Shown: positions 3,344 through 58,784 of the stretch, one piece after another
Layout: the number at the start of each line of letters is the position of its first letter
How positions within the stretch are numbered: position 1 is the stretch's first letter
Source: Chitinophaga pinensis
GTDB lineage: Bacteria > Bacteroidota > Bacteroidia > UBA7662
DNA: 64,000 nucleotides
NCBI GenBank assembly: GCA_945874665.1
Contig: CAMCHJ010000008.1
Span: 3,880-67,879 of the forward strand
Reading direction: 5' to 3'
The notes under the pieces: model-generated
What the model was told of the DNA's origin: nothing
The model's input: the letters and a program-made list of their open reading frames with translations, nothing else
Databases searched by the model: none
Made by a program: the position numbers and the translations under genes

Positions 3344-5533
3344 TTGTGCCCTAGCTGCTTAAATTGGGTGATGCAAAATGCGGTAGATTTTGATTGGCGC
3401 CAAGTACCCTTTTTTAGACTTTTACTGGCTTTGCTGTTGGGTTACCAGCTTTCGGCGTGGTGGTGGTGGCCTGGTTACATCACCATTACACTTATTACAG
3501 TATTGGTGGTGGCGCAGTGGCTATTCGGAAAATCGGCTTGGCGCGCCAGTTACCGCTGGAGGTGGTTACAGGGCAGCCTGTTATTTTTGGCTGTGGTACT
3601 GGCAGGAGCTACCCACAAGGCGGAGCATTTGCGCACACACCAGGCAGTTGCCTTGGCAGACTTACAAGCCTTTGCCGCGCTCAAAGTTACAGTAACCCAT
3701 TATCCCGAATCAAAAGGCGCTTTTTTGCGGGTTCAGGGCCAAGTTAGCAGCGCGTTAGACAGCAGTCGTTATTGGCCTCTCGAACACCAAGGCTGTCTAT
3801 TGAAATTTGACAGCAACGATGTAGCTGCGAAACAGCTTACCCCTGGCCATACCCTGGTTGTAGCGAGTAGCGGTTTGCGCGGCTTGTACGAAAGTCGCAA
3901 CCCACATGCCTTCTCTTACAAAAAACTCATGGCCAGCAGGGGCATTCACTTCCAACTTAAACTACCCTCTGGAAGTTGGCGGGTATATGAAACGAGCGCT
4001 TTGAAAGGACCTATGGGCTTTGCCAGTCGCCTCAAAAAACTATCCACGGCCAAACTTTTTAGCTTTTTAAAAGGGGAGCAGCAGGCACCCTTTGCTGCGG
4101 CTTTGCTGCTTGGTGACCGCAGTGCGCTCGACCAAGATTTGGTGAAGGCCTATGCCAGTAGCGGTGCCATCCACGTGTTGGCAGTTTCAGGCTTGCATGT
4201 AGGTATTTTTTACATGCTGGTGCGCTGGCTGAGCATGCATTTATTCAGACTCAAACGCTGGGGATCTTTGGCAGTGGTGTTGTTGGCCCTTTGGCTGTAC
4301 GCCCTTGTGACCGGCCTGCCACCCTCGGTGAGTCGCGCTTGCACCATGTTTAGTTTGATTGCCATTGCCAAAGAGCTCAAACGCGATGCACTCATTTACA
4401 ACAGCATGTCGGCAGCCGCCTTTGTAATACTTTGGCTGAAACCTGCTTTTTTAACCGAAACCGGCTTTCAGTTATCGTTTGCGGCGGTAATTGGCATTGT
4501 GTATTTGCAGCCCAAATTGTATAAGCTGGTATATTTAAAACACAAATGGGCCGACTGGCTGTGGCAGCTCACCAGTGTTTCGTTGGCCGCGCAGCTGTTT
4601 ACCTTTCCCTTAAGCGTGTACTACTTCAACCAATTTCCCAACTACTTTTTACTATCCAATTTTGTGGTCATTCCCATTGCCGCTCCCCTGCTTTTGGGGT
4701 GTTTGCTGCTATTGGCACTTTCGCCCCTGCCCTATTTAGCTGAAAAATTTGGTTGGTTATTGGGGAAGGCCTTTGATTTAGTAAATGCCATCATATTACA
4801 AATCGAACAATTGCCGGGGGCGTTAACCGAGGGCATTGCCTGGTCGCCCACCACCTTTTGGCTCAGCTATGCCTTCATTTTAAGTGGTTGTTGGTGGCTG
4901 TGGGGCAAAGAAAATCGTTTTCGGCTCGTCACCATTTGGCTGGGTGCGGCGCTGTTGGTACAGCCCTTGCTTCAAAAAATGGAGCAGCAAAAGCAGGTTA
5001 CATTTACCCTCTACGACGGCTTTGGCGGCAGCAGTGGTAGTTTTATCAGTGGCAACAAAGCTTGGTTGTGGGGCACCCAACCCGAAATACCCTTCTCCCC
5101 CGCCAAAAGTGAACTCCTACATGCGGGGGTTTCGCGGTACGACAGCCTGATAAGGCCGCCTTTGCAATTACTCGCTTGGCAAGGTCAACGCATCTTGTGG
5201 GTGAATGGAAAAACGCCGCCACAAACCTGGCCTGCAGCCGATGTATTGCTGCTCAGCAACCAACCTCCGCCTTACTTGGTAGAACGCCAGCTGACAAAAT
5301 ACCGAACAATCCTTCTCGATTCGTCGAATTCGCCTTATTATTGTGAAAAGCTAAAAGCAAAAGTGCTGGCTGCTGGATTGCGCTTTTTCAGCGTGGCGGA
5401 GCAGGGAGCATTGGTATTTACGCCATGGACTATCAATACATCGACTTACAACTCGAGCAACGCATCGGACACATCGTACTCAATCGACCCGAAAAACGCA
5501 ATGCCTTCAATGAAGCGCTTGTTACCGAGCTGA
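3344..5533 (+). CDS. comEC: ComEC/Rec2 family DNA internalization competence protein
   Basis: Polytopic membrane protein containing the Competence domain (..SSGAIHVLAVSGLHVGIF..) and a C-terminal soluble region. An alternative start lies at 3371 (MQNAV..). The 3' end overlaps the next gene by 109 nt. Confidence 0.82.
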   Translation: MCPSCLNWVMQNAVDFDWRQVPFFRLLLALLLGYQLSAWWWWPGYITITLITVLVVAQWLFGKSAWRASYRWRWLQGSLLFLAVVLAGATHKAEHLRTHQAVALADLQAFAALKVTVTHYPESKGAFLRVQGQVSSALDSSRYWPLEHQGCLLKFDSNDVAAKQLTPGHTLVVASSGLRGLYESRNPHAFSYKKLMASRGIHFQLKLPSGSWRVYETSALKGPMGFASRLKKLSTAKLFSFLKGEQQAPFAAALLLGDRSALDQDLVKAYASSGAIHVLAVSGLHVGIFYMLVRWLSMHLFRLKRWGSLAVVLLALWLYALVTGLPPSVSRACTMFSLIAIAKELKRDALIYNSMSAAAFVILWLKPAFLTETGFQLSFAAVIGIVYLQPKLYKLVYLKHKWADWLWQLTSVSLAAQLFTFPLSVYYFNQFPNYFLLSNFVVIPIAAPLLLGCLLLLALSPLPYLAEKFGWLLGKAFDLVNAIILQIEQLPGALTEGIAWSPTTFWLSYAFILSGCWWLWGKENRFRLVTIWLGAALLVQPLLQKMEQQKQVTFTLYDGFGGSSGSFISGNKAWLWGTQPEIPFSPAKSELLHAGVSRYDSLIRPPLQLLAWQGQRILWVNGKTPPQTWPAADVLLLSNQPPPYLVERQLTKYRTILLDSSNSPYYCEKLKAKVLAAGLRFFSVAEQGALVFTPWTINTSTYNSSNASDTSYSIDPKNAMPSMKRLLPS

Positions 5534-6204
5534 AACACGCTTTCGAGCAGCTGTACCAAGACGAGGCCTGCAAAATTATTGTGCTGCGCGCCAAAGGTGA
5601 GGTTTTTAGCGCGGGTGCCGATTTAGGCTACCTGCAGCAGTTACAAAACAATACGTATGAAGAAAACCAGGCCGATTCGCGGCACCTGATGGCTTTATAC
5701 GAAATGATTTACGCTGGTCCCAAAGTAGTGATCAGTCAAGTTGAAGGCCATGCCATTGCCGGCGGCTGTGGATTGGCCACCGTGAGCGACTTTAGTTTTG
5801 CGGTTCCGGGCGCCAACTTTGGTTATACCGAAGTGCGCATTGGCTTTATTCCAGCCATCGTTTCAGTGTTTTTAGCCCGCAAAATTGGCGAAGGAAAAGC
5901 CCGCGAACTGTTGCTTACCGGCGACCTCATCAGTGCCGAGGAAGCACTTCGGTACGGTTTGATTAGTTTTGTGGTAAATGCCGATGAGATTGCCGAGCGC
6001 GTGCAACAATTCGCCTTGGGTTTGGCCAAAAACTGTTCGGGTAACTCTTTGGCCATGACCAAAAGATTGCTTGCCGAAGTACAAGACCTGCCCTATCAAG
6101 CCGCTTTGGCATTGGCTGCCGACCGCAATGCTCAAGCACGTGCCACCGACGATTGTCAGCACGGCATTAAATCGTTTCTCAACAAAGAAAAAATAAAGTG
6201 GTAA
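5425..6204 (+). CDS. enoyl-CoA hydratase/isomerase (crotonase) family protein
   Basis: N-terminus IVLNRPEKRNAFN.., ..FSAGADL.., ..GHAIAGGCGLA.. are crotonase fold signatures; 259 aa. Confidence 0.88.
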   Translation: MDYQYIDLQLEQRIGHIVLNRPEKRNAFNEALVTELKHAFEQLYQDEACKIIVLRAKGEVFSAGADLGYLQQLQNNTYEENQADSRHLMALYEMIYAGPKVVISQVEGHAIAGGCGLATVSDFSFAVPGANFGYTEVRIGFIPAIVSVFLARKIGEGKARELLLTGDLISAEEALRYGLISFVVNADEIAERVQQFALGLAKNCSGNSLAMTKRLLAEVQDLPYQAALALAADRNAQARATDDCQHGIKSFLNKEKIKW

Positions 6205-6435
6205 AATACCTGCTGCTTTACTCGCCTTTGTAACTGCACTGGTGACCGGCAGCGAACTCCCCCAAAAAAGAGCGTTCATGCTTACAGCCCCTGCCCCAAG
6301 CGCGGTGCTGAACAGTGACGTGCTTTAGTCAGTTAAAAGTTACTTCGCATAACACAAAGCTGTAAGTTTTGAACTACAGAGTGTGCGTGGGATATGGAAA
6401 ATCAGCTATCCGACGATGCATTTCGAAAAAGGCGT

Positions 6436-7107
6436 TTAGCCTGCGCCAAAAACCGACTTTAACATGGGAATGGCACCATTGGCGATGAACTGAATACCAA
6501 TTGCCAATACAATAAAGCCCATCATACGCGACATGGCACTGATGCCTGATTCACCTAAAAAACTTACCAATCGAGGTGAAACGCGCAAAATCAAATACGT
6601 TACCAACGCCATCACGAGCACTGCGGCAATCACCAGCAGGTAATCCCAAATAACAGTGAGCTCGAGCGCCAAGCTGATGAGCAGCGAAATGGAACCTGGG
6701 CCTGAAAGCATCGGCATGGCCAGCGGCGAAAAACTGATGTCGTTTTTAAGGAGGGCTTCTTCCTTCACCTTTTTGTTGATGGCGCGGCCTTTCGAATATT
6801 CAGATTTAGAACGCAACAAATCGATGCCCGATTTACTAATGATGATGCCGCCTGCAATGCGGAGACCTTCGATGCTGATGCCAAAAAAATCGAGGATATA
6901 AGTGCCGATTAGGAAAAAAACAATCAGGATACAAGCCAGGTAGATGGCGGCTTTGCGGACTTGGACTTCGCGCCAGGCAGGACTATCGTTGGCGGTGAGT
7001 GCCAACAGCACGGGCATGGCGCCTAGCGGATTGACAACCGAAAACAAAGCGCTAAAAGTGGCGATAAAAAGTCCCATAACAGTCGCAAAGGTACAATTTT
7101 TAAACAA
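6436..7107 (-). CDS. MarC family (UPF0056/NAAT) integral membrane protein
   Basis: 223 aa, six hydrophobic segments, N-terminal ..FSALFSVVNPLGAMPVLLALT.. typical of MarC. Confidence 0.75.
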   Translation of the reverse strand: MFKNCTFATVMGLFIATFSALFSVVNPLGAMPVLLALTANDSPAWREVQVRKAAIYLACILIVFFLIGTYILDFFGISIEGLRIAGGIIISKSGIDLLRSKSEYSKGRAINKKVKEEALLKNDISFSPLAMPMLSGPGSISLLISLALELTVIWDYLLVIAAVLVMALVTYLILRVSPRLVSFLGESGISAMSRMMGFIVLAIGIQFIANGAIPMLKSVFGAG

Positions 7108-7274
7108 GCTGCTGCTTGTAAATTAGATCTAGTACGCAAATAAGCTCGCAGTGTTAAAGCGGAGGCTCACCCAAAAAAACATCGTTTCGAACAGGAAAAG
7201 CAAGGATAAACGCCGGTTACAGGAGAAAATGCGTTGTCAGCTTGTTTTAGGAAGTGCTCCAGGCGGATGCTGCC

Positions 7275-7946
7275 TTAAAGGCGCAGGAGTAAATTGGGGT
7301 CAGGACAAAGCGCCAGCCATTTAGCAGCTTCTGAGGGTGCGCAAACGCCTGGGAAATCGCCGCTGCGGCCTTCTAAATCACGTATGATTTGAAAATGCAA
7401 GTGCGGTGGCCAGTGTACATTTTCGTGCCAGGCACCGAGGCTACCGAGAGGCTGACCGGCGGCAAACGACATGCCCACCTCCAGACTTTGGAGCGAAGAC
7501 AGGCTGAGATGGCCATAAAGCGTATAAAATGTTTGTGCCGATATACAATGCTCTAAAATAATCGTGGGGCCGTAATCGCCCGAAGCGCTGTTGTTCGCAA
7601 AACTGTGGAGGGTGCCCTCGATTGGCGCATACAAGGGAGTACCAGCTGGCGCCCATAAATCGATGCCGAGGTGCAGTGATCGGGCTTCAGCGCCTGAGAA
7701 TACTTCACTTTTACGATAAATAACGCGGTCTTCGGCATAGGCGCCAACACCCAACAGGGCACCTGCTTGCGCCATACTTTCGCTGATATACCCGCAAAAA
7801 GCCGATTCCGATCGTAACAAATCAGGGGTTAGCGCCTCATTGGCCGCCGTTAAATCGAACAGCAGCTGTGCCTTGCCCTGAAAGGTCACTGGCAGCACAA
7901 ACTGAACAGGTAATTGGGCTAAAAAAGCTTCGAAAGTAGCGTGCAT
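7275..7946 (-). CDS. peptidase M23 family protein
   Basis: HxGxD-like (LHLGIDLWAPAGTPLYAPIEG) and HxH (PHLHFQI) zinc-ligand motifs of LytM/M23 peptidases. No signal peptide seen. Confidence 0.7.
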   Translation of the reverse strand: MHATFEAFLAQLPVQFVLPVTFQGKAQLLFDLTAANEALTPDLLRSESAFCGYISESMAQAGALLGVGAYAEDRVIYRKSEVFSGAEARSLHLGIDLWAPAGTPLYAPIEGTLHSFANNSASGDYGPTIILEHCISAQTFYTLYGHLSLSSLQSLEVGMSFAAGQPLGSLGAWHENVHWPPHLHFQIIRDLEGRSGDFPGVCAPSEAAKWLALCPDPNLLLRL

Positions 7947-8013
7947 AACTAGGAAACAGTCTCAAACATACTGCCTCTGCACCAAAATGACAAGTTAGTG
8001 GAGCCTTAGGCCT

Positions 8014-8274
8014 TTAGTGCGTACCAGAAGCGGCACATTCTCCTTTATAACGACTCGGACAAGTACCGCAGTCGACCCCTTTTGCGGCTAACAGCGGGTT
8101 GTGGCTTGAGCAGGTGCCCCTAAATTCCCCCTTCTTTAAAAACAACATGCGAATGCCTAAACCAGCAAATCCGAGTGCTAAAAAAACGAAAGTAAGGAGG
8201 AGTACGGGTAACATAATTGGAATTTGAGTACAAAGATACAACGCTGAGCGGAATTGAAGGTTCTCACGGGGCAA
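8014..8274 (-). CDS. nqrM: (Na+)-NQR maturation protein NqrM
   Basis: 86 aa with a single TM helix then a Cys-rich tail (GTCSSHNPL..CGTCPSRYKGEC). It lies immediately downstream of ApbE, as in nqr loci. Confidence 0.7.
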   Translation of the reverse strand: MPRENLQFRSALYLCTQIPIMLPVLLLTFVFLALGFAGLGIRMLFLKKGEFRGTCSSHNPLLAAKGVDCGTCPSRYKGECAASGTH

Positions 8275-8283
8275 GAATTTGGC

Positions 8284-9303
8284 TTAAGGCTGCTTCACCA
8301 ATTTAGTGAGACCTGGCGAAATGTATTCCTGCACAGCCCCTGTAGAATCGCTGTACAAAAACACCGCTTCGAGCTCGTCTGTGGCTTCCACCAAGGTACG
8401 AGCGGCTTCAAACCCCATCACCATAAAGGCGGTGGCGTAACCGTCGGCGGTCATGCAGTCGTTGGCAATAACCGAAGCGCTCAACAAATTGCTTTCGCTT
8501 GGGTAGCCGGTTTTGGGATGGATGGTATGGGCGTATTTGCGACCCTCTTTTTCGTAAAAATTGCGGTAATTACCCGAGGTGGCCATGCTTTTGTCGGCGA
8601 GTGGCAAAGTCATTTGCACTTCGCGTTGCTGGCCCGTTTGGTCGTCGATCGGCTTTTCGATGCCCGCGATCCACTTAAAACCAGGTGCCTTTTCACCTGC
8701 TGCCCGCAGTTCCCCGCCAATTTCTACAATGTAATTTTTAACCCCTTGGCTTTCGAGGTAGCGCGCCACAGCATCCACGCCATACCCTTTGGCAATGGCA
8801 CTGAAGTCGAGGATAATACCTGGTTGCGCCTTATAAAGGGTATCGTTTAGTAACTGCACCTGCTCAAATCCCACCAAGGTCAGCAACGAATCGATGCGAG
8901 CACTGTCTATTTCGCCTTGCATTTTTTGGAAACCGAAGCCCCAAGCGTTTACCAATGGTCCAACCGTTGGGTCGAAAGCACCCTCGCTTTGCTTCCAAAT
9001 TTCCATAGACTTGTGAAAATTCACTTGCAGCATGGCATCGGCCCAAGCACTTTTTTCGGCTTGGTTGATGAGGGAGATGTTGGAAGAAGGAATATACGTT
9101 GAAAGCGATGCGTTTACAACCAACAAAACGCTATCAACCCCTGCTTGCAACAATGCCTGCACCTCACCTGCATACACCACATTGTAAGTAGTACCCATGG
9201 TGGCACCCGAAAATTTATGTATTTGATCTTTTGAGGTGCTGCAGGCCATCAAAAGCACTGCTAGCAGGATTGCTAGTTGTTTCATGCCGCAAAAATAATT
9301 CAA
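8284..9303 (-). CDS. apbE: FAD:protein FMN transferase (ApbE family lipoprotein)
   Basis: Lipoprotein signal (LLMACSTS), ApbE family body (..ATMGTTYNVVY.. ..ATSGNYRNF..); 339 aa. Confidence 0.88.
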   Translation of the reverse strand: MNYFCGMKQLAILLAVLLMACSTSKDQIHKFSGATMGTTYNVVYAGEVQALLQAGVDSVLLVVNASLSTYIPSSNISLINQAEKSAWADAMLQVNFHKSMEIWKQSEGAFDPTVGPLVNAWGFGFQKMQGEIDSARIDSLLTLVGFEQVQLLNDTLYKAQPGIILDFSAIAKGYGVDAVARYLESQGVKNYIVEIGGELRAAGEKAPGFKWIAGIEKPIDDQTGQQREVQMTLPLADKSMATSGNYRNFYEKEGRKYAHTIHPKTGYPSESNLLSASVIANDCMTADGYATAFMVMGFEAARTLVEATDELEAVFLYSDSTGAVQEYISPGLTKLVKQP

Positions 9304-21644: not shown

Positions 21645-22340
21645 ATGCAAACCTCCGATTACATTATCATTACAGGCGTAAGTAAAGGCATTGGCTTGGC
21701 CACTGTTCAACTATTAAACCAACAAGGTTACCGCGTGGCGGGTTGGGGCCGTACGGCACCGGCGTACACCCACCCCGATTTCCACTTTTTTAGCTGCGAC
21801 GTGTCCGACTTTGCGCAAGTAGAAGCGGCTTGGCAGCAAACCCAGGCCAAGATGGGCACGCAGTTGTACGGACTCCTAAACAACGCCGGTTTTGGGCATT
21901 TTGGGAAGGTGGAGGAGCTGCCGCTAGAAAAATGGCACGCCATGTTTAACACCAATGTAAACGGACTCATGTATTGCACGCGGGTGGTGGTGCCCACGTT
22001 AAAAGCGCGACAAGCTGGCCACATCATCAACATCAGCTCCATTGCAGGCTTGAATGGCATTGTGCAAGGCAGCGGTTATTCCGCCACCAAATTTGCGGTG
22101 CGCGGCATCAGTCATTCGCTGTACGCCGAGCTGCGTGAAGACGGCATTAAGGTTAGTTGCGTGTACCCCGGTTCGGTAGCTACGAACTTTTTTGATGAAG
22201 TAGAGGGCGTTACCATCAACCCCAACATGCTGCAGCCGCAAGATGTGGCAACGCTCTTGGTGCAGCTGCTGCAATCGTCGCCTAATTTTTTGACAGTCGA
22301 TGTAGAAATCAGGCCGTTGCAACCCAAGGGGAAGAAGTAG
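21645..22340 (+). CDS. SDR family oxidoreductase
   Basis: TGxxxGxG-like N-terminus (IITGVSKGIGLA), catalytic YxxxK (YSATK), NNAG motif. Confidence 0.88.
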   Translation: MQTSDYIIITGVSKGIGLATVQLLNQQGYRVAGWGRTAPAYTHPDFHFFSCDVSDFAQVEAAWQQTQAKMGTQLYGLLNNAGFGHFGKVEELPLEKWHAMFNTNVNGLMYCTRVVVPTLKARQAGHIINISSIAGLNGIVQGSGYSATKFAVRGISHSLYAELREDGIKVSCVYPGSVATNFFDEVEGVTINPNMLQPQDVATLLVQLLQSSPNFLTVDVEIRPLQPKGKK

Positions 22341-22475
22341 CCCCCCTTCGGCAAGCTCAGGGACCGCCTTCGACCGGCGGGCCCTTCGATGAACTCAGGG
22401 ACCACCTTCGACAAGCTCAGGGACCGCCGTCGAACCCCAGGGACCAGCTTGGATGCTTCGAACAACTCAGCAAGC
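22341..22475 (+). repeat. tandem array of ~22-bp repeat TTCGAYAARCTCAGGGACCRCC (locus 1, ~5-6 partly degenerate units)
   Basis: Directly visible, for example TTCGACAAGCTCAGGGACCGCC at 22407-22428, and begins right after the SDR stop codon. The six-frame ORFs here (FDKLRD../SLSLSK..) are artefacts of the repeats. Confidence 0.85.
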
Positions 22476-22595
22476 GCTGCTTGCCTATTGCAGCTGAGAA
22501 ATATGCAGCCATTTTTCTCCCCTCCTTTTTTTCGCCCTTAACGCATTTATGCCTATTATTGCAGTCGCAAAAAATCTGGAAATAAAGAACTTTAC

Positions 22596-23579
22596 ATGAG
22601 AGAAATTCAAATGCGCGAAGCCCTGCGAGAAGCCATGCAGGAAGAAATGCGCAGAGACGATCGCGTGTTTTTAATGGGCGAAGAAGTTGCCCAATACAAC
22701 GGTGCCTACAAGGTTAGTCAGGGCATGCTCGACGAATTTGGCGACCGCCGCGTTATCGACACCCCCATTGCCGAGCTGGGTTTTGCAGGTATTGGCGTAG
22801 GTGCGGCCATGAATGGCTTGCGGCCAATCATTGAGTTTATGACCTTCAACTTTTCGTTGGTGGCCATCGACCAGATTGTAAACGCTGCGGCTAAGGTTTT
22901 ATCGATGTCGGGCGGACAGTTTGGCGCACCCATGGTGTTTCGCGGTCCTTCGGGCTCGGCTGGCACCCTCGGCGCACAACACTCGCAGGTATTCGAAAGC
23001 TGGTACGCCAACGTGCCGGGCCTCAAAGTCATCTCCCCTTCTACCCCTTACGACGCCAAGGGCTTGCTGAAGTCGGCCATCCGCGACAACGACCCCGTGA
23101 TTTTTATGGAGTCGGAGCAAATGTACGGCGACAAAGGCGAGGTGCCCGAAGGCGAATACCTCATTCCCATTGGCGTAGCCGATGTGAAGCGTGCCGGTAC
23201 CGACATTACCCTCGTTTCTTACAATAAAATGATGAAAGTGGCGCTGGCTTCTGCTGAGGCGTTGGCTGCTGAAGGCATTTCTGCCGAGGTGATCGACCTG
23301 CGCACCATCCGTCCGCTCGACCACGCGACCATCATCAACAGCGTTAAAAAAACCAACCGCTTGGTGGTCATCGACGAAAGCTGGCCTTACGGCGGCATTT
23401 CTTCGGAGATTGCTTACCGCGTGCAGAAAGATGCGTTCGATTACCTCGACGCACCGGTGGTTCGTATCAACGGCGCCGACGTATCGATGCCTTACGCCAT
23501 GAACCTGGTGCAGGCCTATTTGCCTTCTGTAGAGAAGGTGGTGAAGGCCGTGAAGGAAGTGATGTACGTGAAAAAATAA
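22596..23579 (+). CDS. pdhB: alpha-ketoacid (pyruvate/acetoin) dehydrogenase E1 component beta subunit
   Basis: Transketolase-like pyrimidine-binding and C-terminal domains (..IDTPIAELGFAGIGVGAAMNGLRPIIEFMTFNF..); 327 aa. Confidence 0.88.
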   Translation: MREIQMREALREAMQEEMRRDDRVFLMGEEVAQYNGAYKVSQGMLDEFGDRRVIDTPIAELGFAGIGVGAAMNGLRPIIEFMTFNFSLVAIDQIVNAAAKVLSMSGGQFGAPMVFRGPSGSAGTLGAQHSQVFESWYANVPGLKVISPSTPYDAKGLLKSAIRDNDPVIFMESEQMYGDKGEVPEGEYLIPIGVADVKRAGTDITLVSYNKMMKVALASAEALAAEGISAEVIDLRTIRPLDHATIINSVKKTNRLVVIDESWPYGGISSEIAYRVQKDAFDYLDAPVVRINGADVSMPYAMNLVQAYLPSVEKVVKAVKEVMYVKK

Positions 23580-23599
23580 GCTGTTTATCAGCTGCAAAT

Positions 23600-23640
23600 A
23601 GCAAAAGCCGGGGCCTAGAGGTCTCGGCTTTTTTGTTTGA
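23600..23640 (+). terminator. putative terminator after pdhB
   Basis: GC-rich imperfect hairpin (AGCCGGGGCCTAGAGGTCTCGGCT) followed by TTTTTTGTTT. Confidence 0.45.
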
Positions 23641-23709
23641 TGCCAAGCCGACAGCCGGACTGCCTCCCCCCTTTAGTCTGCTTTTTACAACAGCATGCCG
23701 ACGGCTCAG

Positions 23710-24870
23710 TTACTGCCGCTTGATGGCGCGCCAACTCACAGGAGGCGCTGCTTGGAGTCCCTGCAGCTTCATCATGTGTTGGTAAAGGTCGGTGTTTTCT
23801 TGGATGCCCGTGAACCAGTCGGCACCCGGACCAAAGGCAAACACCGGTACCATCACGGCCGTATGTTTGGTGGAGGTGAAAGCGCCCTTCACGGTACCCT
23901 TCACAAAATCGCCACCCGCAAGCGCAAAACCGCCTGTTTCATGGTCTGCCGTTTCAATCACCAGCGTTTCGCCATCCTTTTCGGCAAAATCGAGCGCCAA
24001 GGCCACGGCTTTGTCGAAGTCGATCATTTCTTGCACAATGTAATCGGCATCGTTGGCATGACCACCCCAGTCAATTTGCGAGCCTTCCACCATCAGAAAA
24101 AAGCCTTTTTCGTTCTGCGAGAGGCGGTCGAGGGCAAAGCTGGTAGCGCGGGGCAAAACATCATCGCGCCCATCGGTCTTTTTAGGTGCCGCATCTTCCC
24201 ACAACAGCGCACCAAAGCGCACATTGGCAGGCAGCTCGTTCATGGCCATTTCGTTATCTACCATAAAAAAGCCACGTTGCTGGGCTTCGGCCACGAGGTC
24301 GCGACCGTCGGTGCGCTGGTTAAAGTATTTGCGACCGCCGCCGATGAAGAGCTGCAGTTTGCTGTTTACGATTTCCCAGGCGATTTCATTGTGCATTTCG
24401 CGGTGCGGCACGTGGGCCACAAACGAAGCCGGGGTAGCGTGGGTAATGGTGCTGGTGGCGATGATGCCCGTGGACTTGCCGGCTTTGGCGGCCGATTCGA
24501 GCACCGTTTCGTGCGCCATGGTATCGGCCGATACGCCGATGGCGTTGTTGTAGGCCTTTTGACCGATGCTAAAAGCCGTTGCCCCCGCACCCGAGTCGGT
24601 AATGAGGTTGTCGAAGCTGTAGGTTTTAATGAAGCCGATGTGTTTAAAGCGCTCCAGGGCCAGCACATTGTGGTTGGCAATCATGCCGCCGTAAATTTGG
24701 CTCGTGCCCATGCCATCGCCAATGAGGAAAATGATGTTTTTAGGCGGTTTTGGTGCCTGTATAGGGATGGCCGTGGTGGCTTCGTTGGGATTAACAGCAA
24801 TTTGCTTAGGACTGTTGCAACCCAGCAGCAAAATGGCCAGCAGGGCAAAAGCGGCGTGCATCTTCTTCAT
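23710..24870 (-). CDS. phoA: alkaline phosphatase (PhoA family lipoprotein)
   Basis: Lipoprotein signal (LLLGC), active-site region DGMGTS, metal-ligand motifs; 386 aa. Confidence 0.88.
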   Translation of the reverse strand: MKKMHAAFALLAILLLGCNSPKQIAVNPNEATTAIPIQAPKPPKNIIFLIGDGMGTSQIYGGMIANHNVLALERFKHIGFIKTYSFDNLITDSGAGATAFSIGQKAYNNAIGVSADTMAHETVLESAAKAGKSTGIIATSTITHATPASFVAHVPHREMHNEIAWEIVNSKLQLFIGGGRKYFNQRTDGRDLVAEAQQRGFFMVDNEMAMNELPANVRFGALLWEDAAPKKTDGRDDVLPRATSFALDRLSQNEKGFFLMVEGSQIDWGGHANDADYIVQEMIDFDKAVALALDFAEKDGETLVIETADHETGGFALAGGDFVKGTVKGAFTSTKHTAVMVPVFAFGPGADWFTGIQENTDLYQHMMKLQGLQAAPPVSWRAIKRQ

Positions 24871-24893: not shown

Positions 24894-25517
24894 TTAGATT
24901 GCAGCGGCTTGGGGGGATGGATTGGGGGCTGGGGGTTGGGTAGAGATGTAAACTCCCCCCTTACCAGCCCCCAGCCGTTCCAACACCACCGCCTGGATGG
25001 CGGCTACGGTAATGGCATCGGTAATGGCGCCAGACTTTACCAGGGCGTAAGCCTCATCGAGACTCACTTTTTTGCGCTGCAGCTGCTCGGTATCTTCGGG
25101 TTCGGGTTCAAATTGGGTGAGCCCGCGGGCTACGTACACAATGGCCAGCTCGTCGCTTACCGAGTTGGAGAGGTGCAGGCGCAGCAGCTCTTGCCAATGC
25201 TCGGCGGTGCAGCCGGTTTCTTCGAGCAGCTCGCGCTGGGCCGAAGCCAGGGGATCGGCCGTAAGTGGCCCCCCGCCCTCGGGCAGCTCCCACGAATAGG
25301 CATTGAGCGGAAAACGGTATTGGCCCACCAGCCACAGCTGCTCGTGCTCGTCGAAAGCCACGATGCCGATGGCCAGGTTTTTAAAATGCACCTTGCCGTA
25401 AATGCCGGGATTGCCGTTGGGGTTGAGCACCTGGTACTCGGTGAGCTGGATCCAGGGGTTGCTGTACACCTCCTTTTCGGCTGTTATTTGCCAGGGGTTG
25501 TGCTGTTCATCAATCAT
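24894..25517 (-). CDS. NUDIX hydrolase
   Basis: Nudix box GGGPLTADPLASAQRELLEETG. The start is set at MIDEQHNPW (the ORF extends 39 nt further). Confidence 0.82.
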   Translation of the reverse strand: MIDEQHNPWQITAEKEVYSNPWIQLTEYQVLNPNGNPGIYGKVHFKNLAIGIVAFDEHEQLWLVGQYRFPLNAYSWELPEGGGPLTADPLASAQRELLEETGCTAEHWQELLRLHLSNSVSDELAIVYVARGLTQFEPEPEDTEQLQRKKVSLDEAYALVKSGAITDAITVAAIQAVVLERLGAGKGGVYISTQPPAPNPSPQAAAI

Positions 25518-25695
25518 GGCTACCTCCAAAATCAAACATGGCGGGTTTGTTTTCAATTACCTGATGGTCTTTGGGTATTTCAAACAGGGCCATGGGCAGC
25601 GCTTCGGGGGAGGTGTTGAGGAGGGTGAGGCGTTTCATTGTTTTGTTTGTTCAAAAATAGGGGCTGGGGGTGAAAAGGTGTGTCTTTTTTTTGAA

Positions 25696-25721
25696 ACACG
25701 GAGGTCACGGAGGACACGGAG
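25696..25721 (+). repeat. 3x tandem CACGGAGG(N) motif flanked by T-runs
   Basis: aCACGGAGGtCACGGAGGaCACGGAGt with T8 on each side; seen directly. Confidence 0.7.
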
Positions 25722-25730
25722 TTTTTTTTA

Positions 25731-25907
25731 GACCGCCCTTCGACAAGCTCAGGGACCACCTTCGATGCTTCGATAAACTCAGCAACCGCAACTGCGTTCT
25801 CCGCGTCCTCCGCGGTAAAAAAAACCGAACACCGCCCTTCGATAAACTCAGGGACCGCCCTTCGACAAGCTCAGGGACCACCTTCGATAAACTCAGGGAC
25901 CGCCTTA
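25731..25907 (+). repeat. tandem array of the same ~22-bp repeat TTCGAYAARCTCAGGGACCRCC (locus 2, 5-6 units)
   Basis: Units at 25739-25760, 25761-25790 (degenerate) and 25839-25904 (three intact units), interrupted by a 40-nt insert with a small hairpin CCGCG-TCCTC-CGCGG. The last unit abuts or overlaps the stop codon of the HDAC-like gene. Confidence 0.85.
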
Positions 25908-26810
25908 TTCGAAAAAGATTTGCTGCGCTAAGCGGTAGGTATTGCAGTGGGCTTCGAGGATGTGGCGGATGTCGGTAGAGTAGCCGCCACCCATGCAGAT
26001 AACCAGCGGCAGGTGCAGGCGGTGGGCTTGGCGCAGCACAAAGGCATCGCGGGCAGCGCAACCGGCGATACTGAGGCCCAGTTTACCGAGTTTGTCGGTG
26101 GCCAACACATCTACCCCGGCTTGGTAGAACATAAAATCGGGTTGGAACTCGGCCAGGATGCGGGTCAGTTGCTCGTCGAGCAGCGCCAAATAGGTGGCAT
26201 CGTCGGTGCCGTTGGGTAGCGGCAGGTCGAGGTTCGACTGTTCTTTGTGGTGCGGGTAATTCGAAGCGCCGTGCATGCTGAACGTAAACACCCGTGGCTC
26301 GTTTTCAAAAATTTTGGCCGTGCCGTTGCCTTGGTGCACATCTAAATCAACCACCAACACGCGCTGGGCCAGACCTTTCGCCAGCAAATGCGCCGCGGCA
26401 ATGGCTTGGTCGTTGAGCAAACAAAAGCCTTCCCCACTATCGGCATAGGCATGGTGCGTGCCTCCCGCCACATTCATGGCCACGCCATGTTGCAGGGCAA
26501 ACTGTGCCGCATCCAAAGTGCCCTGGGCAATGGTTATTTCGCGCTGCACCAAAGCTGCACTTAAAGGAAAGCCAATTTTGCGCATCTCCTTGGGCGTGAG
26601 CTTTAAAGCCTGCATCCGTTGCCAATAGTCGGCGGTATGCACCCGCAAAATAGCCTCCTCGCTGCAGGCCTCGGGCGCAAAAAGCTGGTCGGGCTGGATG
26701 GTGCCTTCGTAGAGCAGTTGCTCGGGAATGAGCTCGTATTTGAGCATCGGAAAACGGTGACCTTCGGGCAGCGGATGGGCGTACAGCGGGTGGTAAGCAA
26801 TTTTGAGCAC
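25905..26810 (-). CDS. histone deacetylase-family amidohydrolase (AcuC/Aph-like)
   Basis: Arginase/deacetylase-fold motifs (..VVDLDVHQGNGTA.., ..FSMHG..), 301 aa. Confidence 0.85.
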   Translation of the reverse strand: MLKIAYHPLYAHPLPEGHRFPMLKYELIPEQLLYEGTIQPDQLFAPEACSEEAILRVHTADYWQRMQALKLTPKEMRKIGFPLSAALVQREITIAQGTLDAAQFALQHGVAMNVAGGTHHAYADSGEGFCLLNDQAIAAAHLLAKGLAQRVLVVDLDVHQGNGTAKIFENEPRVFTFSMHGASNYPHHKEQSNLDLPLPNGTDDATYLALLDEQLTRILAEFQPDFMFYQAGVDVLATDKLGKLGLSIAGCAARDAFVLRQAHRLHLPLVICMGGGYSTDIRHILEAHCNTYRLAQQIFFE

Positions 26811-53094: not shown

Positions 53095-53168
53095 GGTCCC
53101 GTAGCTCAGCTGGATAGAGCAACTGCCTTCTAAGCAGTAGGCCTTTGGTTCGAATCCAAACGGGATCG
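53095..53168 (+). tRNA. tRNA-Arg (anticodon TCT)
   Basis: Acceptor GGTCCCG/CGGGATC, D-arm GTAGCTCAGCTGGATAGAGC, anticodon stem ACTGC/GCAGT with loop CTTCTAA, T-loop GGTTCGAATCC. Confidence 0.9.
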
Positions 53169-53285
53169 CAACGCTCAGAAGGAGCTCGCAAGTAGGCCGA
53201 GAAAATTATTTTCGGTTTTTTCTTTCCAGGGGGTAAAGCGCTATGGAAAGTTCTATATTTGCAGTCCCAATTGGCCACGGCCAAT

Positions 53286-53372
<87 letters not shown>

Positions 53373-53392
53373 CACCTTCACAGGTAACCGCT

Positions 53393-53467
53393 CGGGGTGT
53401 AGCGTAGCCCGGTTATCGCGCCTGCTTTGGGAGCAGGAGGTCGCAAGTTCGAATCTTGCCACCCCGA
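53393..53467 (+). tRNA. tRNA-Pro (anticodon TGG)
   Basis: Acceptor CGGGGTG/CACCCCG, anticodon stem CCTGC/GCAGG with loop TTTGGGA, T-arm GCAAGTTCGAATCTTGC. Confidence 0.9.
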
Positions 53468-53469
53468 CA

Positions 53470-53511
53470 ATGAAACCCGTATCGCCGCAGGCGATGCGGG
53501 TTTTTCATTTT
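53470..53511 (+). terminator. hairpin (likely terminator of the tRNA cluster), founding member of a local hairpin family
   Basis: TGAAACCCGTATCGCC-GCAG-GCGATGCGGGTTTTTCA near-perfect inverted repeat followed by TTTTCATTTT. Confidence 0.65.
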
Positions 53512-53807
53512 AGCGCGCGTCTGCGCCGCCCCCAGCGGTGCAAGCAAGCGCTAAAATGAAAAACACGTTTCATACGCGCCAGCGTATGAACGGGTTTCAT
53601 TAGTCCTATCCCCCCAACAAGATGGGCGAGCAACGCGAGTCAATCTTGCCTCCGGCCCTCACCACAGCGCGCTTCTGCACTGCGCCCAGCAGTGCAAGGA
53701 AGCTGGAAAATGAAAAACCAGTTCAGCTGCGCCAGCAGCTGACGGGTTTCATTAGTCCTCTTCCCCCCTTCAAGATGGGCGAACGCAGTGAGTCAATCTT
53801 GCCTCCC
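53511..53807 (+). repeat. two tandem copies (period ~155 nt) of a 142-nt element, each with a conserved outer stem ATGAAAAAC/GGGTTTCAT and a covarying inner stem
   Basis: Copy A is 53511-53652 and copy B is 53666-53807. The inner stems are CGTTTCATACGC-GCCA-GCGTATGAACGG in A and CAGTTCAGCTGC-GCCA-GCAGCTGACGG in B: same loop, different but still complementary stems. The shared 3' part is ..GGGTTTCATTAGTCCT.TCCCCCC..CAAGATGGGCGA.C....GAGTCAATCTTGCCTCC. Confidence 0.8.
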
Positions 53808-55869: not shown

Positions 55870-57318
55870 ATGAGCACATCAGAACAGGACATACTCGAGC
55901 AGATTACCGGCGACGACTACAAATATGGATTCGTAAGCAACATTGAGCAGGACATCATTCCTAAAGGTTTGACGGAAGACACGGTGCGCTTTATTTCTGC
56001 GAAAAAAAATGAACCCCATTGGTTACTCGACTGGCGTTTAAAGGCTTACAAACACTGGCTGGGCATGACGCCTCCCGATTGGCAGAACGTTAAATTCCCA
56101 CCCATTGATTACCAAGACATTAGCTACTATGCTTCCCCTAAAGAAGGCAGCAAACTAAACAGCTTAGACGAGCTCGACCCAGAGATCAAGGCCACTTACG
56201 ACAAATTAGGAATTCCCCTCGAGGAGCAGCTCATTTTGGCTGGAGTGGCTGTAGATGCGGTGCTCGACTCGGTATCGGTGATCACCACCTTCAAAGAAAA
56301 ACTCGCTGAAAAAGGCGTTATTTTTTGTTCCATCAGTGAAGCTGTGCAAGAACACCCGGAGCTGATCAAAAAGTACCTTGGCAGCGTGGTGCCATACACT
56401 GACAATTATTTTGCAGCCCTCAACAGCGCCGTTTTTAGCGATGGTTCGTTTGTGTACATCCCCAAAGGCGTTCGTTGTCCGATGGAATTAAGCACCTACT
56501 TCCGCATCAACGCCAAAGGTACTGGGCAGTTTGAACGCACCCTCCTCATTGCCGAAGATGCCAGTTATGTTAGCTACCTAGAAGGTTGCACGGCACCCAA
56601 GCGCGACGAAAATCAGTTGCACGCGGCAGTCGTTGAACTTGTAGCCATGGAAAGTGCCGAAATCAAGTACAGTACCGTACAAAACTGGTACCCGGGCGAC
56701 AAAGACGGCAAAGGCGGTATTTATAATTTCGTTACCAAGCGCGGTGTGTGCATGGGCAACGGCTCCAAAATCAGCTGGACCCAAGTTGAAACCGGCTCTG
56801 CCATCACCTGGAAATACCCAAGCGTGGTGCTAAAAGGCGACAACAGCATCGGTGAATTTTACAGCGTGGCGGTTACCAACAACCTGCAACAAGCCGATAC
56901 GGGCACCAAAATGATCCACATCGGCAAAAACACTAAAAGTCGCATTGTAAGCAAAGGCATCAGCGCTGGCAAGAGCCAAAACTCCTACCGCGGTCTGGTG
57001 AAAGTGCGCAAATCGGCCGCCAACGCTCGCAACTACAGTCAGTGCGACTCGCTGCTGATGGGCGACAAATGCGGGGCGCACACCTTCCCCTACTTCGAAA
57101 TCAACAACAATGGCGCAACGGTAGAACACGAAGCCACCACCTCTAAAATTGGGGAAGACATTATGTTTTACTGCAACCAGCGCGGCATTTCGCAAGAAGA
57201 TGCGGTGGCACTCATCGTAAACGGCTATGCCAAAGAGGTACTCGACAAATTGCCCATGGAGTTTGCTGTAGAAGCTAAAAAGTTATTGGCCATTTCACTC
57301 GAAGGCTCTGTGGGATAA
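55870..57318 (+). CDS. sufB: Fe-S cluster assembly protein SufB
   Basis: 482 aa, highly conserved SufB sequence. Confidence 0.95.
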
Positions 57319-57327
57319 CACCGACAG

Positions 57328-57359
57328 GGTTCAAAATTCAAAGTTCAAAATTCAAAAAC
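57328..57359 (+). repeat. 4x tandem heptamer TTCAAAR immediately after the sufB stop
   Basis: gg TTCAAAA TTCAAAG TTCAAAA TTCAAAAA ct. Exact reverse complement of the array downstream of the four-helix-bundle gene. Confidence 0.85.
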
Positions 57360-57382: not shown

Positions 57383-57847
57383 ATGGCTGGCTATATGGCA
57401 TTTGAGGAGACGAAAATTTGGCAAGAGTCACGTAAGCTTGTCAACAGCATCTATTTGGCCATCCAAAATAGTACGGCATTTTCGCAGGATTACGCGCTCG
57501 GAAATCAAATCAAACGTGCAGCAATTTCCATTCCTTCAAATATTGCCGAAGGTTTTGAAAGGTCTACTAACAAAGAATTGATTCACTTCTTATTCATTGC
57601 AAAGGGATCAGCGGGAGAAGTTAGAACCCAGTTATGGTTGGCGAGTGATTTGAACTTCCTGAATAAAAAAGAACTTGATGCTTTAATTGATAAGGTTAAA
57701 ACCATTAGTAAAATGATTCAAGGAATGATTAATTATCTCCAAAAAAGTGAAATGAAAGGCACAAAGTATCATAATGAATTAAGAGAGCCCGAGGCTGAAT
57801 TCCAAGGCCTAGAACACTTTTTCCAAACGAGAGACACGTCTGAATAA
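57383..57847 (+). CDS. four-helix-bundle protein (TIGR02436; the family first described as the ORF inside 23S rRNA intervening sequences)
   Basis: 154 aa. N-terminus ..FEETKIWQESRKLVNSIY.. and ..IPSNIAEGFERSTNKELIHFLFIAKGSAGEVRTQL.. are typical of the family. Inserted between sufB and sufC. Confidence 0.82.
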   Translation: MAGYMAFEETKIWQESRKLVNSIYLAIQNSTAFSQDYALGNQIKRAAISIPSNIAEGFERSTNKELIHFLFIAKGSAGEVRTQLWLASDLNFLNKKELDALIDKVKTISKMIQGMINYLQKSEMKGTKYHNELREPEAEFQGLEHFFQTRDTSE

Positions 57848-57913: not shown

Positions 57914-57963
57914 ACTTTGAACTTTGAACTTTGAATTTTGAACTTTGAACCTTGAATTTTGAA
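57914..57963 (+). repeat. 7x tandem heptamer YTTTGAA (reverse complement of TTCAAAR)
   Basis: CTTTGAA CTTTGAA CTTTGAA TTTTGAA CTTTGAA CCTTGAA TTTTGAA; seen directly. Confidence 0.85.
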
Positions 57964-58025
57964 CTTCCGCAATCAACTTAGAACAAATAATCAGCAACCC
58001 CTTATACGCTCCGAACATAATTACA

Positions 58026-58784
58026 ATGCTTAATATAAACAACCTCAAAGCGTCGATCGACGACAAACAAATCCTCAAAGGCATCAACCTGGAAGTTAAG
58101 CCGGGTGAAGTGCATGCCATCATGGGCCCGAATGGCTCTGGCAAATCAACCCTTTCAAGCGTTATTGCTGGTCGCGAAGGCTATGAAGTAAGCGGCGAAG
58201 TGTTGTTCAACGGCAAAGACCTACTCGAATTGGCACCAGAAGTACGGGCTTGGGAGGGCATCTTCCTCGCTTTCCAATATCCAGTTGAAATACCCGGTGT
58301 TAGCAACACCAATTTTATGCGTACCTGCATCAATGAGCAGCGCAAATACCGCGGCTTGCCTGATATGGACGCCAGCACTTTCCTCAAAACCATGCGCGAA
58401 AAAGCGGAATTGGTGGAGCTCGACCCTAATTTGATGAAGCGCTCAGTAAACCAAGGCTTCTCAGGCGGTGAAAAAAAGCGCAATGAGATATTCCAGCTCG
58501 CCATGCTCGATCCTAAGCTGGCCATCCTCGACGAAACAGACTCTGGTCTCGACATTGACGCCCTCCGCATTGTGTCGAACGGCGTGAACAAGCTCCGTAA
58601 TAAAGACAACGCCTTTGTAGTGATCACCCACTACCAGCGTTTGCTCGACTACATCATACCTGATTTTGTGCACGTATTGATGAACGGTCAGATTGTAAAA
58701 TCAGGGACCAAAGAACTCGCTTACGAGCTTGAAGAAAAAGGCTACGATTGGATCAAGGCTGAATTGAAAGAAGCCGCCCTATGA
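58026..58784 (+). CDS. sufC: Fe-S cluster assembly ATPase SufC
   Basis: Walker A GPNGSGKST, ABC signature FSGGEKKR, Walker B LAILDETDSGLD. Confidence 0.95.
   Translation: MLNINNLKASIDDKQILKGINLEVKPGEVHAIMGPNGSGKSTLSSVIAGREGYEVSGEVLFNGKDLLELAPEVRAWEGIFLAFQYPVEIPGVSNTNFMRTCINEQRKYRGLPDMDASTFLKTMREKAELVELDPNLMKRSVNQGFSGGEKKRNEIFQLAMLDPKLAILDETDSGLDIDALRIVSNGVNKLRNKDNAFVVITHYQRLLDYIIPDFVHVLMNGQIVKSGTKELAYELEEKGYDWIKAELKEAAL

Follow-up and report, generated by a model that had tools for sequence, protein, structure and literature searches.

The subject of this analysis is an array of ~22-nt direct repeats located immediately 3' of the stop codon of a short-chain dehydrogenase/reductase (SDR) gene and upstream of pdhB, in a 64,000-nucleotide stretch of Chitinophaga pinensis contig CAMCHJ010000008.1 (the whole of this stretch is hereafter called the window). 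With a probability of about 0.6, the array was considered to be a local cluster of a very widespread, selfish hairpin repeat resembling repetitive extragenic palindromic (REP) sequences, having no dedicated role for the SDR gene or for pdhB. An interpretation of the type of REPs and bacterial interspersed mosaic elements (BIMEs) was retained because the family consists of hairpin units, forms inverted dimers, clusters and mosaics, occupies 3'-end sites, has intragenic copies and a patchy spread, and is present or absent at orthologous sites. At least a dozen bacterial phyla share an identical 17-19-base core of the repeat, a degree of conservation without equivalent in known repeat families.

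The core reads CCC-TTCGAYAARCTCA-GGG. Its exact 17-mer, CTTCGACAAGCTCAGGG, was found in at least 120 stretches of the IMG/VR database, versus 2 for the mirror-image 17-mer used as a control. Since CC precedes the 17-mer in 112 of the 128 unique instances, the conserved word was taken as the 19-mer CCCTTCGACAAGCTCAGGG. Genomes (one per species) were scanned with a query made of two cores 4-8 nt apart, which returned at least 120 loci, to be read as a sample and not a census; record titles were available for 80 of them, and most carriers are metagenome-assembled genomes (MAGs). At least 12 bacterial phyla have genomes with head-to-tail core arrays, and cultured isolates (Pseudomarimonas arenosa CAU 1598, Microbacterium sp. 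NPDC087589 and Propioniciclava tarda DSM 22130) are among the carriers. Taxa named for the 80 loci are Bacteroidota, Actinomycetota, Alpha-, Beta- and Gammaproteobacteria, Chloroflexota, Desulfobacterota, Acidobacteriota, Verrucomicrobiota, Deinococcota (Truepera), Parcubacteria, Ignavibacteriota, Spirochaetota and Vulcanimicrobiota, and several carrier genomes are represented by two or three different contigs among the matches listed. A survey of the 22-mer in other genomes had been proposed by a first-pass annotation of the window, made from the sequence alone, and it was the decisive check, the core being found throughout Bacteria.

Spacers within the arrays measure 4-8 nt; they are constant inside an array and different between genomes (ACCGCC/ACCACC in the window, and CAGGCTC, CAAGCTC, CACGACC, CGGATCC, TGACACC and others elsewhere). 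The ACCGCC/ACCACC-spaced unit of the window also occurs in Gammaproteobacteria, Actinomycetota, Ignavibacteriota and other Bacteroidota. The core was absent from 5,426 complete E. coli genomes (E<=10) and from GenBank phages, and it was detected on 5 of 72,556 plasmids (two of Sphingobium, and those of Nitratireductor, Comamonas and Microbacterium), never under an annotated feature; on a Sphingobium plasmid, a single core lies 5 nt past a stop codon. Literature searches with 12- to 17-mers of the core, in DNA and RNA spelling, and with its six-frame peptides gave chance primer matches only; subscription journals were outside this search, and an earlier description is possible. The peptides FDKLRAN, LRQAQGE, SLSKGE, SLSNHE and PELVEG are familiar from hypothetical proteins of many phyla, in keeping with the genome scans.

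In contig11 of Pseudomarimonas arenosa CAU 1598, four core arrays are gathered within 1 kb (~1900-2800), each of them in a higher-order repeat of ~230-370 bp with conserved flanks (GTCGGAGCCAAGCTTCGACTCACTGG... / ...TTCCGGCGAGTTCACAGTAGGCTGCC), and an inverted partner carrying a GCC/GGC stem is also present. About 30 of the 120 IMG/VR matches listed share a portal-protease-capsid cluster (e.g. L022, L042, L066, L068, L096 and L101, L numbers denoting the loci and contigs compared), which is probably a gene transfer agent (GTA) or a prophage of Alphaproteobacteria; in several of these loci, the core doublet is in the portal-protease intergenic gap.

The basic unit of the family is a short hairpin, in which the invariant 13-nt centre TTCGA-YARR-CTCA is enclosed by a variable stem of 3-5 bp, most often CCC/GGG, and followed by ~5 semi-conserved bases. 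Covariation was examined in 114-115 unique copies (the number varying with the de-duplication key) of the 13-nt centre TTCGAYARRCTCA in which the searched C...GGG context is lacking; these copies are not phylogenetically independent. Flank positions 1, 2 and 3 were Watson-Crick complementary in 87, 87 and 78% of the copies, versus 51, 43 and 33% with shuffled partners (maxima of 62, 56 and 44%), and the stems differ among copies (TGG/CCA, CGC/GCG, TGC/GCA, CGT/ACG and others). Pair counting on 148 distinct copies gave 72.6% of paired cells versus 47.2% after shuffling (0 of 500 shuffles reaching the observed value), with a covariation score of 0.58 versus 0.18 and 27-36% of paired cells in slid registers; all five pairs show changes on both sides. 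G-T pairs are rare at stem positions 1-3, while at position 4 the ratio of A-C (G-T on the opposite strand) to G-T is 25:3, a value to be taken as a hint only given the non-independence of the copies. The unit had been described as non-palindromic, which is not fully correct, since the CCC/GGG or CC/GG that flank the 13-nt centre covary as a stem across the family.

In a logo of 253 isolated copies, the sequence 5' of CCC is unconserved and the sequence 3' of GGG is weakly conserved (~CGAACGG). This one-sided conservation is explained by inverted doublets of the form CCGTTCG-stem-TGAGCYTGTCGAA-stem' ... spacer ... stem-TTCGACAAGCTCA-stem'-CGAACGG, whose outer ends pair mutually; the two arms often have different small stems, each arm keeping its own hairpin. 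The only variable part of the loop is its centre (CAAG in 380 copies, CAGG in 64, TAAA in 17 and CGGG in 11), to which are added 5-nt centres such as CTTCG (13 copies) and rare 10-nt ones, as in L001 and L003-L006. A copy may stand alone, belong to an inverted doublet or a tandem array, or be nested within a different palindromic repeat. No consistent target-site duplication was found at the doublets or at the coding insertions described below.

In the window, the SDR gene (21645-22340; Pfam adh_short, E = 3.9e-48) is followed without interruption by the array (22341-22479), which is composed of three good and three degenerate 22-nt units, as follows.

22338..22345, + strand: TAG stop codon of the SDR gene (22338-22340) and run of five C (22341-22345) leading into unit 1
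22346..22367, + strand: unit 1, CTTCGGCAAGCTCAGGGACCGC, 22 nt, present in the window and in L002, missing in L001 and L003-L006
22368..22383, + strand: truncated unit CTTCGACCGGCGGGCC, 16 nt, without the CTCAGGG half, present in the other strains too
22384..22405, + strand: unit 3, CTTCGATGAACTCAGGGACCAC, with centre TGAA, replaced by CTGCTGCGCG in L001 and L003-L006
22406..22427, + strand: unit 4, CTTCGACAAGCTCAGGGACCGC, the canonical core, same as the pan-bacterial 17-mer
22428..22447, + strand: degenerate unit CGTCGAACCCCAGGGACCAG, 20 nt
22448..22479, + strand: 32-nt tail module CTTGGATGC-TTCGAACAACTCAGCAAGCG-CTG, formed of a truncated unit and a variant unit (GCAA for GGGA)
22480..22595, + strand: pdhB upstream region, 116 bases, outside the repeat and conserved in relatives that have no array

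The 22-mer consensus, searched with at most 3 mismatches, gave 8 matches in the window, all on the + strand and all at two sites, versus none in 100 shuffles, and a looser search with the 13-nt centre revealed no further convincing copy in the 64 kb. Tandem Repeats Finder reported this first site at 22383-22455 (period 22, 3.4 copies, 71% matches, score 69). A tandem array of ~22-bp units beginning at the SDR stop codon, as first annotated, is therefore confirmed. It does not fill the whole gap between the SDR gene and pdhB, as had also been claimed, since the repeat covers 139 of the 255 bases and the remaining 116 are the pdhB upstream region.

Comparison with strains and relatives was used to establish the local history of the array. 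The SDR-pdhB order is kept in the metagenome contigs L247 and L248 (SDR 87% identical) and L249 (74%), in which the repeat is absent. In L247 and L248, the SDR protein ends at the same residue and the pdhB upstream region is shared (88% identical from 22508 onward), while the interval from the stop codon to this region contains at most 66 nt of unrelated sequence and no repeat. Contigs encoding an identical SDR protein are of two types: L002 is 100% identical to the window, whereas L001 and L003-L006 are ~98% identical and lack exactly the first 22-nt unit; the latter also read TTCGA-CTGCTGCGCG-CTCAGGG where the window has TTCGA-TGAA-CTCAGGG. At the second site, described below, the ENA contig L327 (99.8% identical) shows essentially unchanged length and sequence. 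Six short-read (Logan) contigs with the same SDR all end 40-71 nt inside the array, which means that the sequence is repetitive for the assembler and gives no copy number. Because it is absent in L247, L248 and L249 and polymorphic between ~98%-identical strains, the array is a lineage-specific acquisition whose unit number and unit centres vary within the species. In L248, the closest relative, ~3.3 kb (5582-8872) lie between pdhB and the next gene that are missing from the window (23579-23717).

The first-pass annotation had also noted that the unit recurs 3.3 kb downstream on the same strand; five more units are indeed found at 25738-25904, within a second site organized as follows.

25677..25833, no strand assigned: mosaic palindromic element, with T8/A8 runs and inverted 9-mer runs around one core unit and its tail
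25738..25792, + strand: inner unit CTTCGACAAGCTCAGGGACCAC (25738-25759) and tail module (25760-25792), at the centre of the mosaic
25837..25904, + strand: array 2, three clean units of 23, 22 and 23 nt, GATAAA..ACCGCC alternating with GACAAG..ACCAC
25905..25907, - strand: stop codon (TTA on +, TAA on minus) of a histone-deacetylase-family gene (25905-26810)

Runs in the mosaic include three copies of CACGGAGG at 25696-25721 and two of CTCCGCG at 25794-25814. The tail of this site is CTTCGATGC-TTCGATAAACTCAGCAACCG, and its segment 25760-25789 matches the tail of the first array at 28 of 32 positions; the existence of two near-identical tails led us to consider them as a defined end module of arrays in this genome. 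A search for the tail module in IMG/VR gave one chance coding match. Tandem Repeats Finder reported the second site at ~25831-25906 (period 22-23, 3.2-3.3 copies, 84-85% matches, scores 105-120). Array 2 is flush with the stop codon of the minus-strand Hist_deacetyl-family gene, so that both window arrays abut stop codons, site 1 being sense and site 2 antisense with respect to the flanking gene.

The runs of the mosaic are not specific to the window. CTCCGYG/CRCGGAG runs at 150 nt or less from a core were counted in 5 of 17 cases, versus ~1 expected (5.5% of sequence; p = 0.0017), and in three alphaproteobacterial GTA-like contigs (L042, L066 and L096) inverted (CGCGGAGA)n runs enclose a core doublet, with the same grammar as in 25677-25833. 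The CACGGAG-run palindrome is a separate common repeat, present in at least 120 IMG/VR stretches, in which runs with 1-3-nt spacers face inverted CTCCGTG runs over a centre of 10-130 nt and are bounded by ..CAC/GTG... None of the 120 matches listed for these runs (L333-L452) contains the core; the palindrome nonetheless hosts it centrally in the window, L042, L066 and L096.

Folding and terminator predictions were applied to the two window arrays. No terminator-like site was detected at 22341-22479 or at 25837-25904, in agreement with the initial statement that the array is not a terminator. Compared with shuffled sequences, site 1 gave z = -2.0 as DNA and -0.2 as RNA, and site 2 gave z = -0.85 as DNA. 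Searches against Rfam 15 yielded nothing relevant around the arrays at E<=10, no match in 18 carrier loci at the gathering threshold and, over the whole window, four tRNAs elsewhere and nothing at the arrays. The core is open in 3 of 3 frames on the forward strand and in 2 on the reverse, which accounts for the open reading frames (ORFs) that had been called spurious; here the array is non-coding, as was proposed.

The genomic context of the copies was examined in the window and in ~240 foreign loci, where gene calls are crude (longest ORF first; in the window, the same rule chose the wrong strand at 24909-25619). Relative to co-directional flanking genes, 20 cores are co-oriented and 21 anti-oriented in the genome loci, and 17 and 21, respectively, in the IMG/VR loci. 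Gene ends flanking the copies are 187 stops versus 127 starts; although both window arrays abut stops, no sharp preference for a given distance to stop codons was observed in the wider sample. Neighbours of the repeat are ordinary housekeeping genes. A protein database search with five tandem copies of the PSTSSGQA peptide gave no match, since composition correction discards such a sequence. Several real genes nevertheless contain a single unit or an array in frame, translated as PSTSSG(QA), as listed here.

L223: insertion within the Pfam match of a tRNA-binding domain (tRNA_bind)
L188: insertion within the Pfam match of NadA
L222: insertion between the domains of a Ser/Thr kinase-cyclase-STAND protein
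L132: insertion between the domains of a STAND-TPR protein
L147: insertion between the domains of an Lhr helicase
L206: insertion within an alpha/beta hydrolase
L234: insertion at the end of a beta-helix protein
L332 (Microbacterium sp. plasmid NZ_CP072877.1, record 294142-294166): in-frame single unit (…DDIAARPSTGSGTAPEITDIHASIVVERDSQKG…) in an Era-like ORF

Periods that are all multiples of 3 (21 or 24 nt) characterize 18 of the 24 arrays located in ORFs of at least 300 aa, versus 17 of the 44 intergenic ones. This is what selection would leave of random insertions, and it explains why the 22/23-nt arrays of the window are intergenic only. It had been stated that finding the unit inside coding repeats elsewhere would make it a coding sequence; it does occur inside genes, as in-frame insertions in unrelated proteins, but the window arrays, with their 22/23-nt periods, are not thereby coding. 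The Era-like ORF of L332 has no coding sequence in the gene table of the plasmid, the insertion having possibly led to a pseudogene call.

A linked gene family was sought by all-against-all clustering of ORFs (at least 120 aa, and 60-200 aa) from the ~240 loci, and none was found; the recurrent clusters were ABC ATPases, SDRs and one phage/GTA-like cluster heavily sampled by IMG/VR. Pfam searches on 127 ORFs around the densest clusters revealed no recurrent transposase, integrase, nuclease or reverse transcriptase, and the window contains no transposase, integrase, reverse transcriptase, Y1/HUH or GIY-YIG gene. A phmmer search for Y1 transposases with two approximate queries gave one match in the ~240 loci (L182) and none in the window. 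In L182, a Chitinophagales MAG, the gene (3966-4428) encodes an IS200-like Y1 transposase and is flanked by a different hairpin repeat (…GGGCTGAACCCCTTTTC… / …GGGGTTCAGCCCTTTAC…); it is 3 kb from the core arrays and forms with that repeat a separate pair, in the same genome, resembling a REP and its REP-associated tyrosine transposase (RAYT).

The window as a whole consists of housekeeping Bacteroidota DNA (~50% G+C) with type IX secretion sorting domains; the genes downstream of the first array are pdhB and a NUDIX hydrolase gene, and an ATP-dependent DNA ligase gene is located two genes upstream of it. Two other repeat-bearing regions were observed in the window. Between sufB (55870-57318) and sufC (58026-58784), a 154-aa ORF (57383-57847) has its best match in PF05635 (23S rRNA-intervening sequence protein, E = 8.4e-35), a weaker one being bAvd-like; the segment 57329-57966 that carries it is bordered by inverted heptamer arrays (TTCAAAA x4 at 57330-57357 and ACTTTGA x7.6 at 57914-57966), and this part of the suf operon resembles an inserted cassette. 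At 53512-53806, a 153-nt unit is repeated 1.9 times with 80% identity, directly after three tRNA genes (53095-53467) and a terminator-like hairpin (~53470-53510).

Taken together, these data can be accommodated by the following scenario. In this lineage, one or several copies landed immediately after the stop codons of the SDR gene and of the deacetylase-like gene. Units would later have been gained or lost through slipped-strand mispairing between the 17-22-nt direct repeats, of which a one-unit difference between 98%-identical strains is the expected product; we infer both this slippage mechanism and the lack of a local function. The folded hairpin, probably as single-stranded DNA (ssDNA), would be the target of a sequence-specific protein acting in trans, by which the repeat is copied or maintained. 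Recognition of a folded single strand by such a protein is suggested by the conserved loop and the freely covarying stem, and has precedents in the pairs RAYT-REP and SsnA-NTS. A bolder version, which we regard as possible but doubtful, is that the family constitutes a third, undescribed REP-like super-family whose 13-nt loop would be the recognition site of a horizontally mobile ssDNA enzyme, analogous to RAYT or SsnA. If so, it would be a pan-bacterial 'nano' mobile element, spread over at least 12 phyla including the Candidate Phyla Radiation (e.g. Parcubacteria), that seeds intergenic arrays and adds PSTSSG linkers inside proteins.

Several observations weigh against the selfish, REP-like interpretation. 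No mobilising enzyme was found in the window or in the ~240 loci, the lone IS200-like TnpA (L182) being flanked by another repeat. Described REP families seldom have head-to-tail dimers (PMC3733652), which are the hallmark here. REPs are normally without a phylum-invariant core (PMC12306157), and passive selfish drift fails to explain one. Only two sites were seen in 64 kb, and the context counts rest on the longest-ORF-first calls mentioned above. Finally, the stem of the window units is limited to 2-3 bp (CC/GG or CCC/GGG) and the arrays show no folding advantage over shuffled sequences, so that it is the family, and not the window copies, that supports the hairpin argument.

Alternative explanations were evaluated on the same data. 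The possibility that the units, transcribed with the 3' end of the upstream gene, act in cis as RNA (stem-loops with a stabilising or protein-binding role, or attenuators between the SDR gene and pdhB) was considered unlikely. Both window arrays and the core of the Sphingobium plasmid (5 nt after the stop) adjoin stop codons, copies adjoin stops more than starts, protein-binding RNA hairpins typically combine a variable stem with a conserved loop, and the 25-to-3 excess at stem position 4 of A-C (G-U on the opposite strand) over G-T goes in the same direction; but orientation to co-directional genes is random (20:21 and 17:21), with site 1 sense and site 2 antisense, copies are found inside coding sequences of unrelated proteins, and close relatives with the same operon layout lack the array. 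Moreover, an RNA folding z of -0.2, the absence of an Rfam match and the absence of a U-tract terminator at the arrays are not what such an element predicts. Covariation is also at odds with an array of binding sites for a protein of double-stranded DNA, with a spacing of about two turns of the helix (sites of the iteron or centromere type, or nucleoid-associated or regulatory ones), as a stem-like covariation of the flanks would be meaningless for a duplex site. This hypothesis, which takes its interest from the iteron-like geometry of a 17-nt conserved core in a 22-24-nt period and from the combination of an invariant core with variable spacers, was judged less probable again: no rep or par gene is nearby in what is chromosomal housekeeping DNA, the core is on just 5 of 72,556 plasmids, the genes beside the arrays are unrelated over at least 12 phyla, some copies lie within coding sequences, and unit number varies between strains while the flanking genes are unchanged.

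Templated tandem addition of a telomerase-like kind, in which a reverse transcriptase or repair polymerase would repeatedly copy a short template into breaks, comes lower still. In its favour are the head-to-tail order of the arrays, their uniformity inside a given genome and their genome-specific spacers, as well as the lack of target-site duplication at doublets and coding insertions and the extension of conservation 3' of the core only; the ATP-dependent DNA ligase gene two genes upstream could be added to this list, although its presence is probably coincidental. The model does not, however, predict the inverted doublets, the single hairpins or the covarying stems; in addition, two unit variants alternate within one window array, reverse transcriptases are absent from the window and not recurrent in the loci, and slippage is a simpler account of the one-unit polymorphism. 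As for a purely local slippage or duplication in this genome, or an assembly artefact, it is refuted. Only two sites were seen in 64 kb and the short-read contigs with the same SDR all stop inside the array, but independent assemblies agree (L002 at 100%, L327 at 99.8%, L001 and L003-L006 at ~98%) and the identical core is shared by hundreds of contigs unrelated to the window, some of them from cultured isolates. Occurrence at these two places only, together with absence from relatives, had been given as a sign of such an artefact; the orthologous site is indeed empty in the nearest relatives, yet the core is present throughout Bacteria. The roles initially left open were a protein-binding array, a recombination site and a satellite. 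Dispersed selfish DNA is better supported than a binding array specific to this locus, because the same core is shared by at least 12 phyla, adjoins housekeeping genes that are unrelated to one another, lies in either orientation and is also found within coding sequences.

Other known categories were tried and rejected. Plasmid or phage iterons do not fit, given the housekeeping neighbours and the presence of the core on 5 of 72,556 plasmids and in no GenBank phage. For miniature inverted-repeat transposable elements, the window arrays have no terminal inverted repeats, and the doublets found elsewhere have 26-nt inverted ends without target-site duplication. A clustered regularly interspaced short palindromic repeat (CRISPR) locus, already dismissed in the first-pass annotation, is inconsistent with spacers of 4-8 nt that are identical within an array, and the window has no cas genes. 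The absence of terminator-like sites at 22341-22479 and 25837-25904 eliminates an intrinsic terminator, and the nature of the downstream genes (pdhB and NUDIX hydrolase) eliminates the ToxI-like repeats of type III toxin-antitoxin systems. The remaining candidates were a GGA sponge for CsrA (GGA is unconserved in other subfamilies), a kink-turn (the required G-A pairs are missing), an integron attC site (AAC/GTT boxes of the wrong polarity), parS, dif and KOPS sites (no match), and the terminal repeats of Tn3 or IS5 (a possible resemblance); all were dropped. The loop equals the T-loop pentamer TTCGA plus the D-arm AGCTCAG of tRNAs; this may be a coincidence, and the idea was also dropped.

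Short interspersed repeats are usually deemed lineage-specific, whereas the word described here is letter-perfect from Parcubacteria to Actinomycetota with a stem that is free to change, which implies a conserved recogniser. The 17-19-nt word offers a handle for finding the enzyme through genome-level co-occurrence, and possibly a new site-specific ssDNA tool. In practice, the repeat accounts for a large class of spurious 'hypothetical proteins' (FDKLR.., LRQAQG.., SLSKG.., PELVEG..), short-read assemblies break at its sites, and flexible peptides are inserted by it into essential proteins such as NadA, Era-like and Lhr. The array between the SDR gene and pdhB should not be taken as a regulator of pdhB.

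Compared with known systems, the family shares features with several and coincides with none. With plasmid iterons it has in common a 17-19-bp core and a ~22-bp period, but it lacks a replication gene or origin context and is chromosomal, dispersed, sometimes intragenic and cross-phylum. Like the BOX elements of Streptococcus pneumoniae, boxA-(boxB)n-boxC (PMC3184786), it associates variable tandem internal units with a distinct end module; BOX units are, however, of ~45-60 bp, restricted to one genus and without evident sequence relation. In-frame insertions of repeats into genes have been reviewed (PMC3184786), and the Rickettsia palindromic elements (RPE) described there resemble the present repeat by inserting in frame in unrelated genes as a short tolerated peptide, here PSTSSG(QA)n, although RPE are 100-150 bp long and found in Rickettsia only, versus 21-24 bp and a pan-bacterial range here. 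The NTS/SRM repeats are recognised as ssDNA by SsnA, a small trans-acting GIY-YIG nuclease that was found through genome-level co-occurrence (PMC11893778). In NTS the stem gives specificity and loop identity is dispensable, whereas in our family conservation resides in the loop; the two repeats have no sequence relationship, and the window has no GIY-YIG gene. Inverted hairpin doublets without target-site duplication, with a complementarity that looks to be at the DNA level, recall the system formed by RAYTs and REP doublets (REPINs), but no RAYT or Y1 gene was found beside any copy in the window or in the ~240 loci. RAYT systems are described as lineage-specific.

The closest relationship is with REPs and BIMEs, and in particular with the GTAG- and CGTC-tagged super-families (Di Nocera et al. 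2013, PMC3733652), which occur in several phyla, form dimers and clusters, have copies inside genes and insert within other palindromes. As in these, our repeats are, at the level of the family, short G+C-rich stem-loops apparently in many copies, mostly at gene 3' ends, found in inverted dimers, clusters and mosaics with other motifs, inserted in palindromes and sometimes intragenic, and uneven among genomes of several phyla; as to copy number, the window has two sites in 64 kb, both intergenic. The initial opinion that the array does not fit REP structure was accordingly revised, since across the family as a whole the unit folds as a hairpin with a short stem and a conserved loop, and forms inverted doublets and clusters, mainly at gene 3' ends and also inside genes, which are properties of REPs and BIMEs (PMC3733652). 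The family is nevertheless not simply a REP, because the logo of the 253 isolated copies has no GTAG or CGTC tag at either end and because head-to-tail arrays, of which those of the window are an example, are common (at least 12 phyla), inverted doublets existing as well. REPs have stems of 5-13 bp and loops mostly of 2-5 nt, whereas here a conserved 13-nt loop is carried by a short variable stem of 3-5 bp. Lastly, a 2025 survey found that REP motifs share little sequence across phyla (PMC12306157); in the family described here, by contrast, the 17-19-nt core is identical across phyla.

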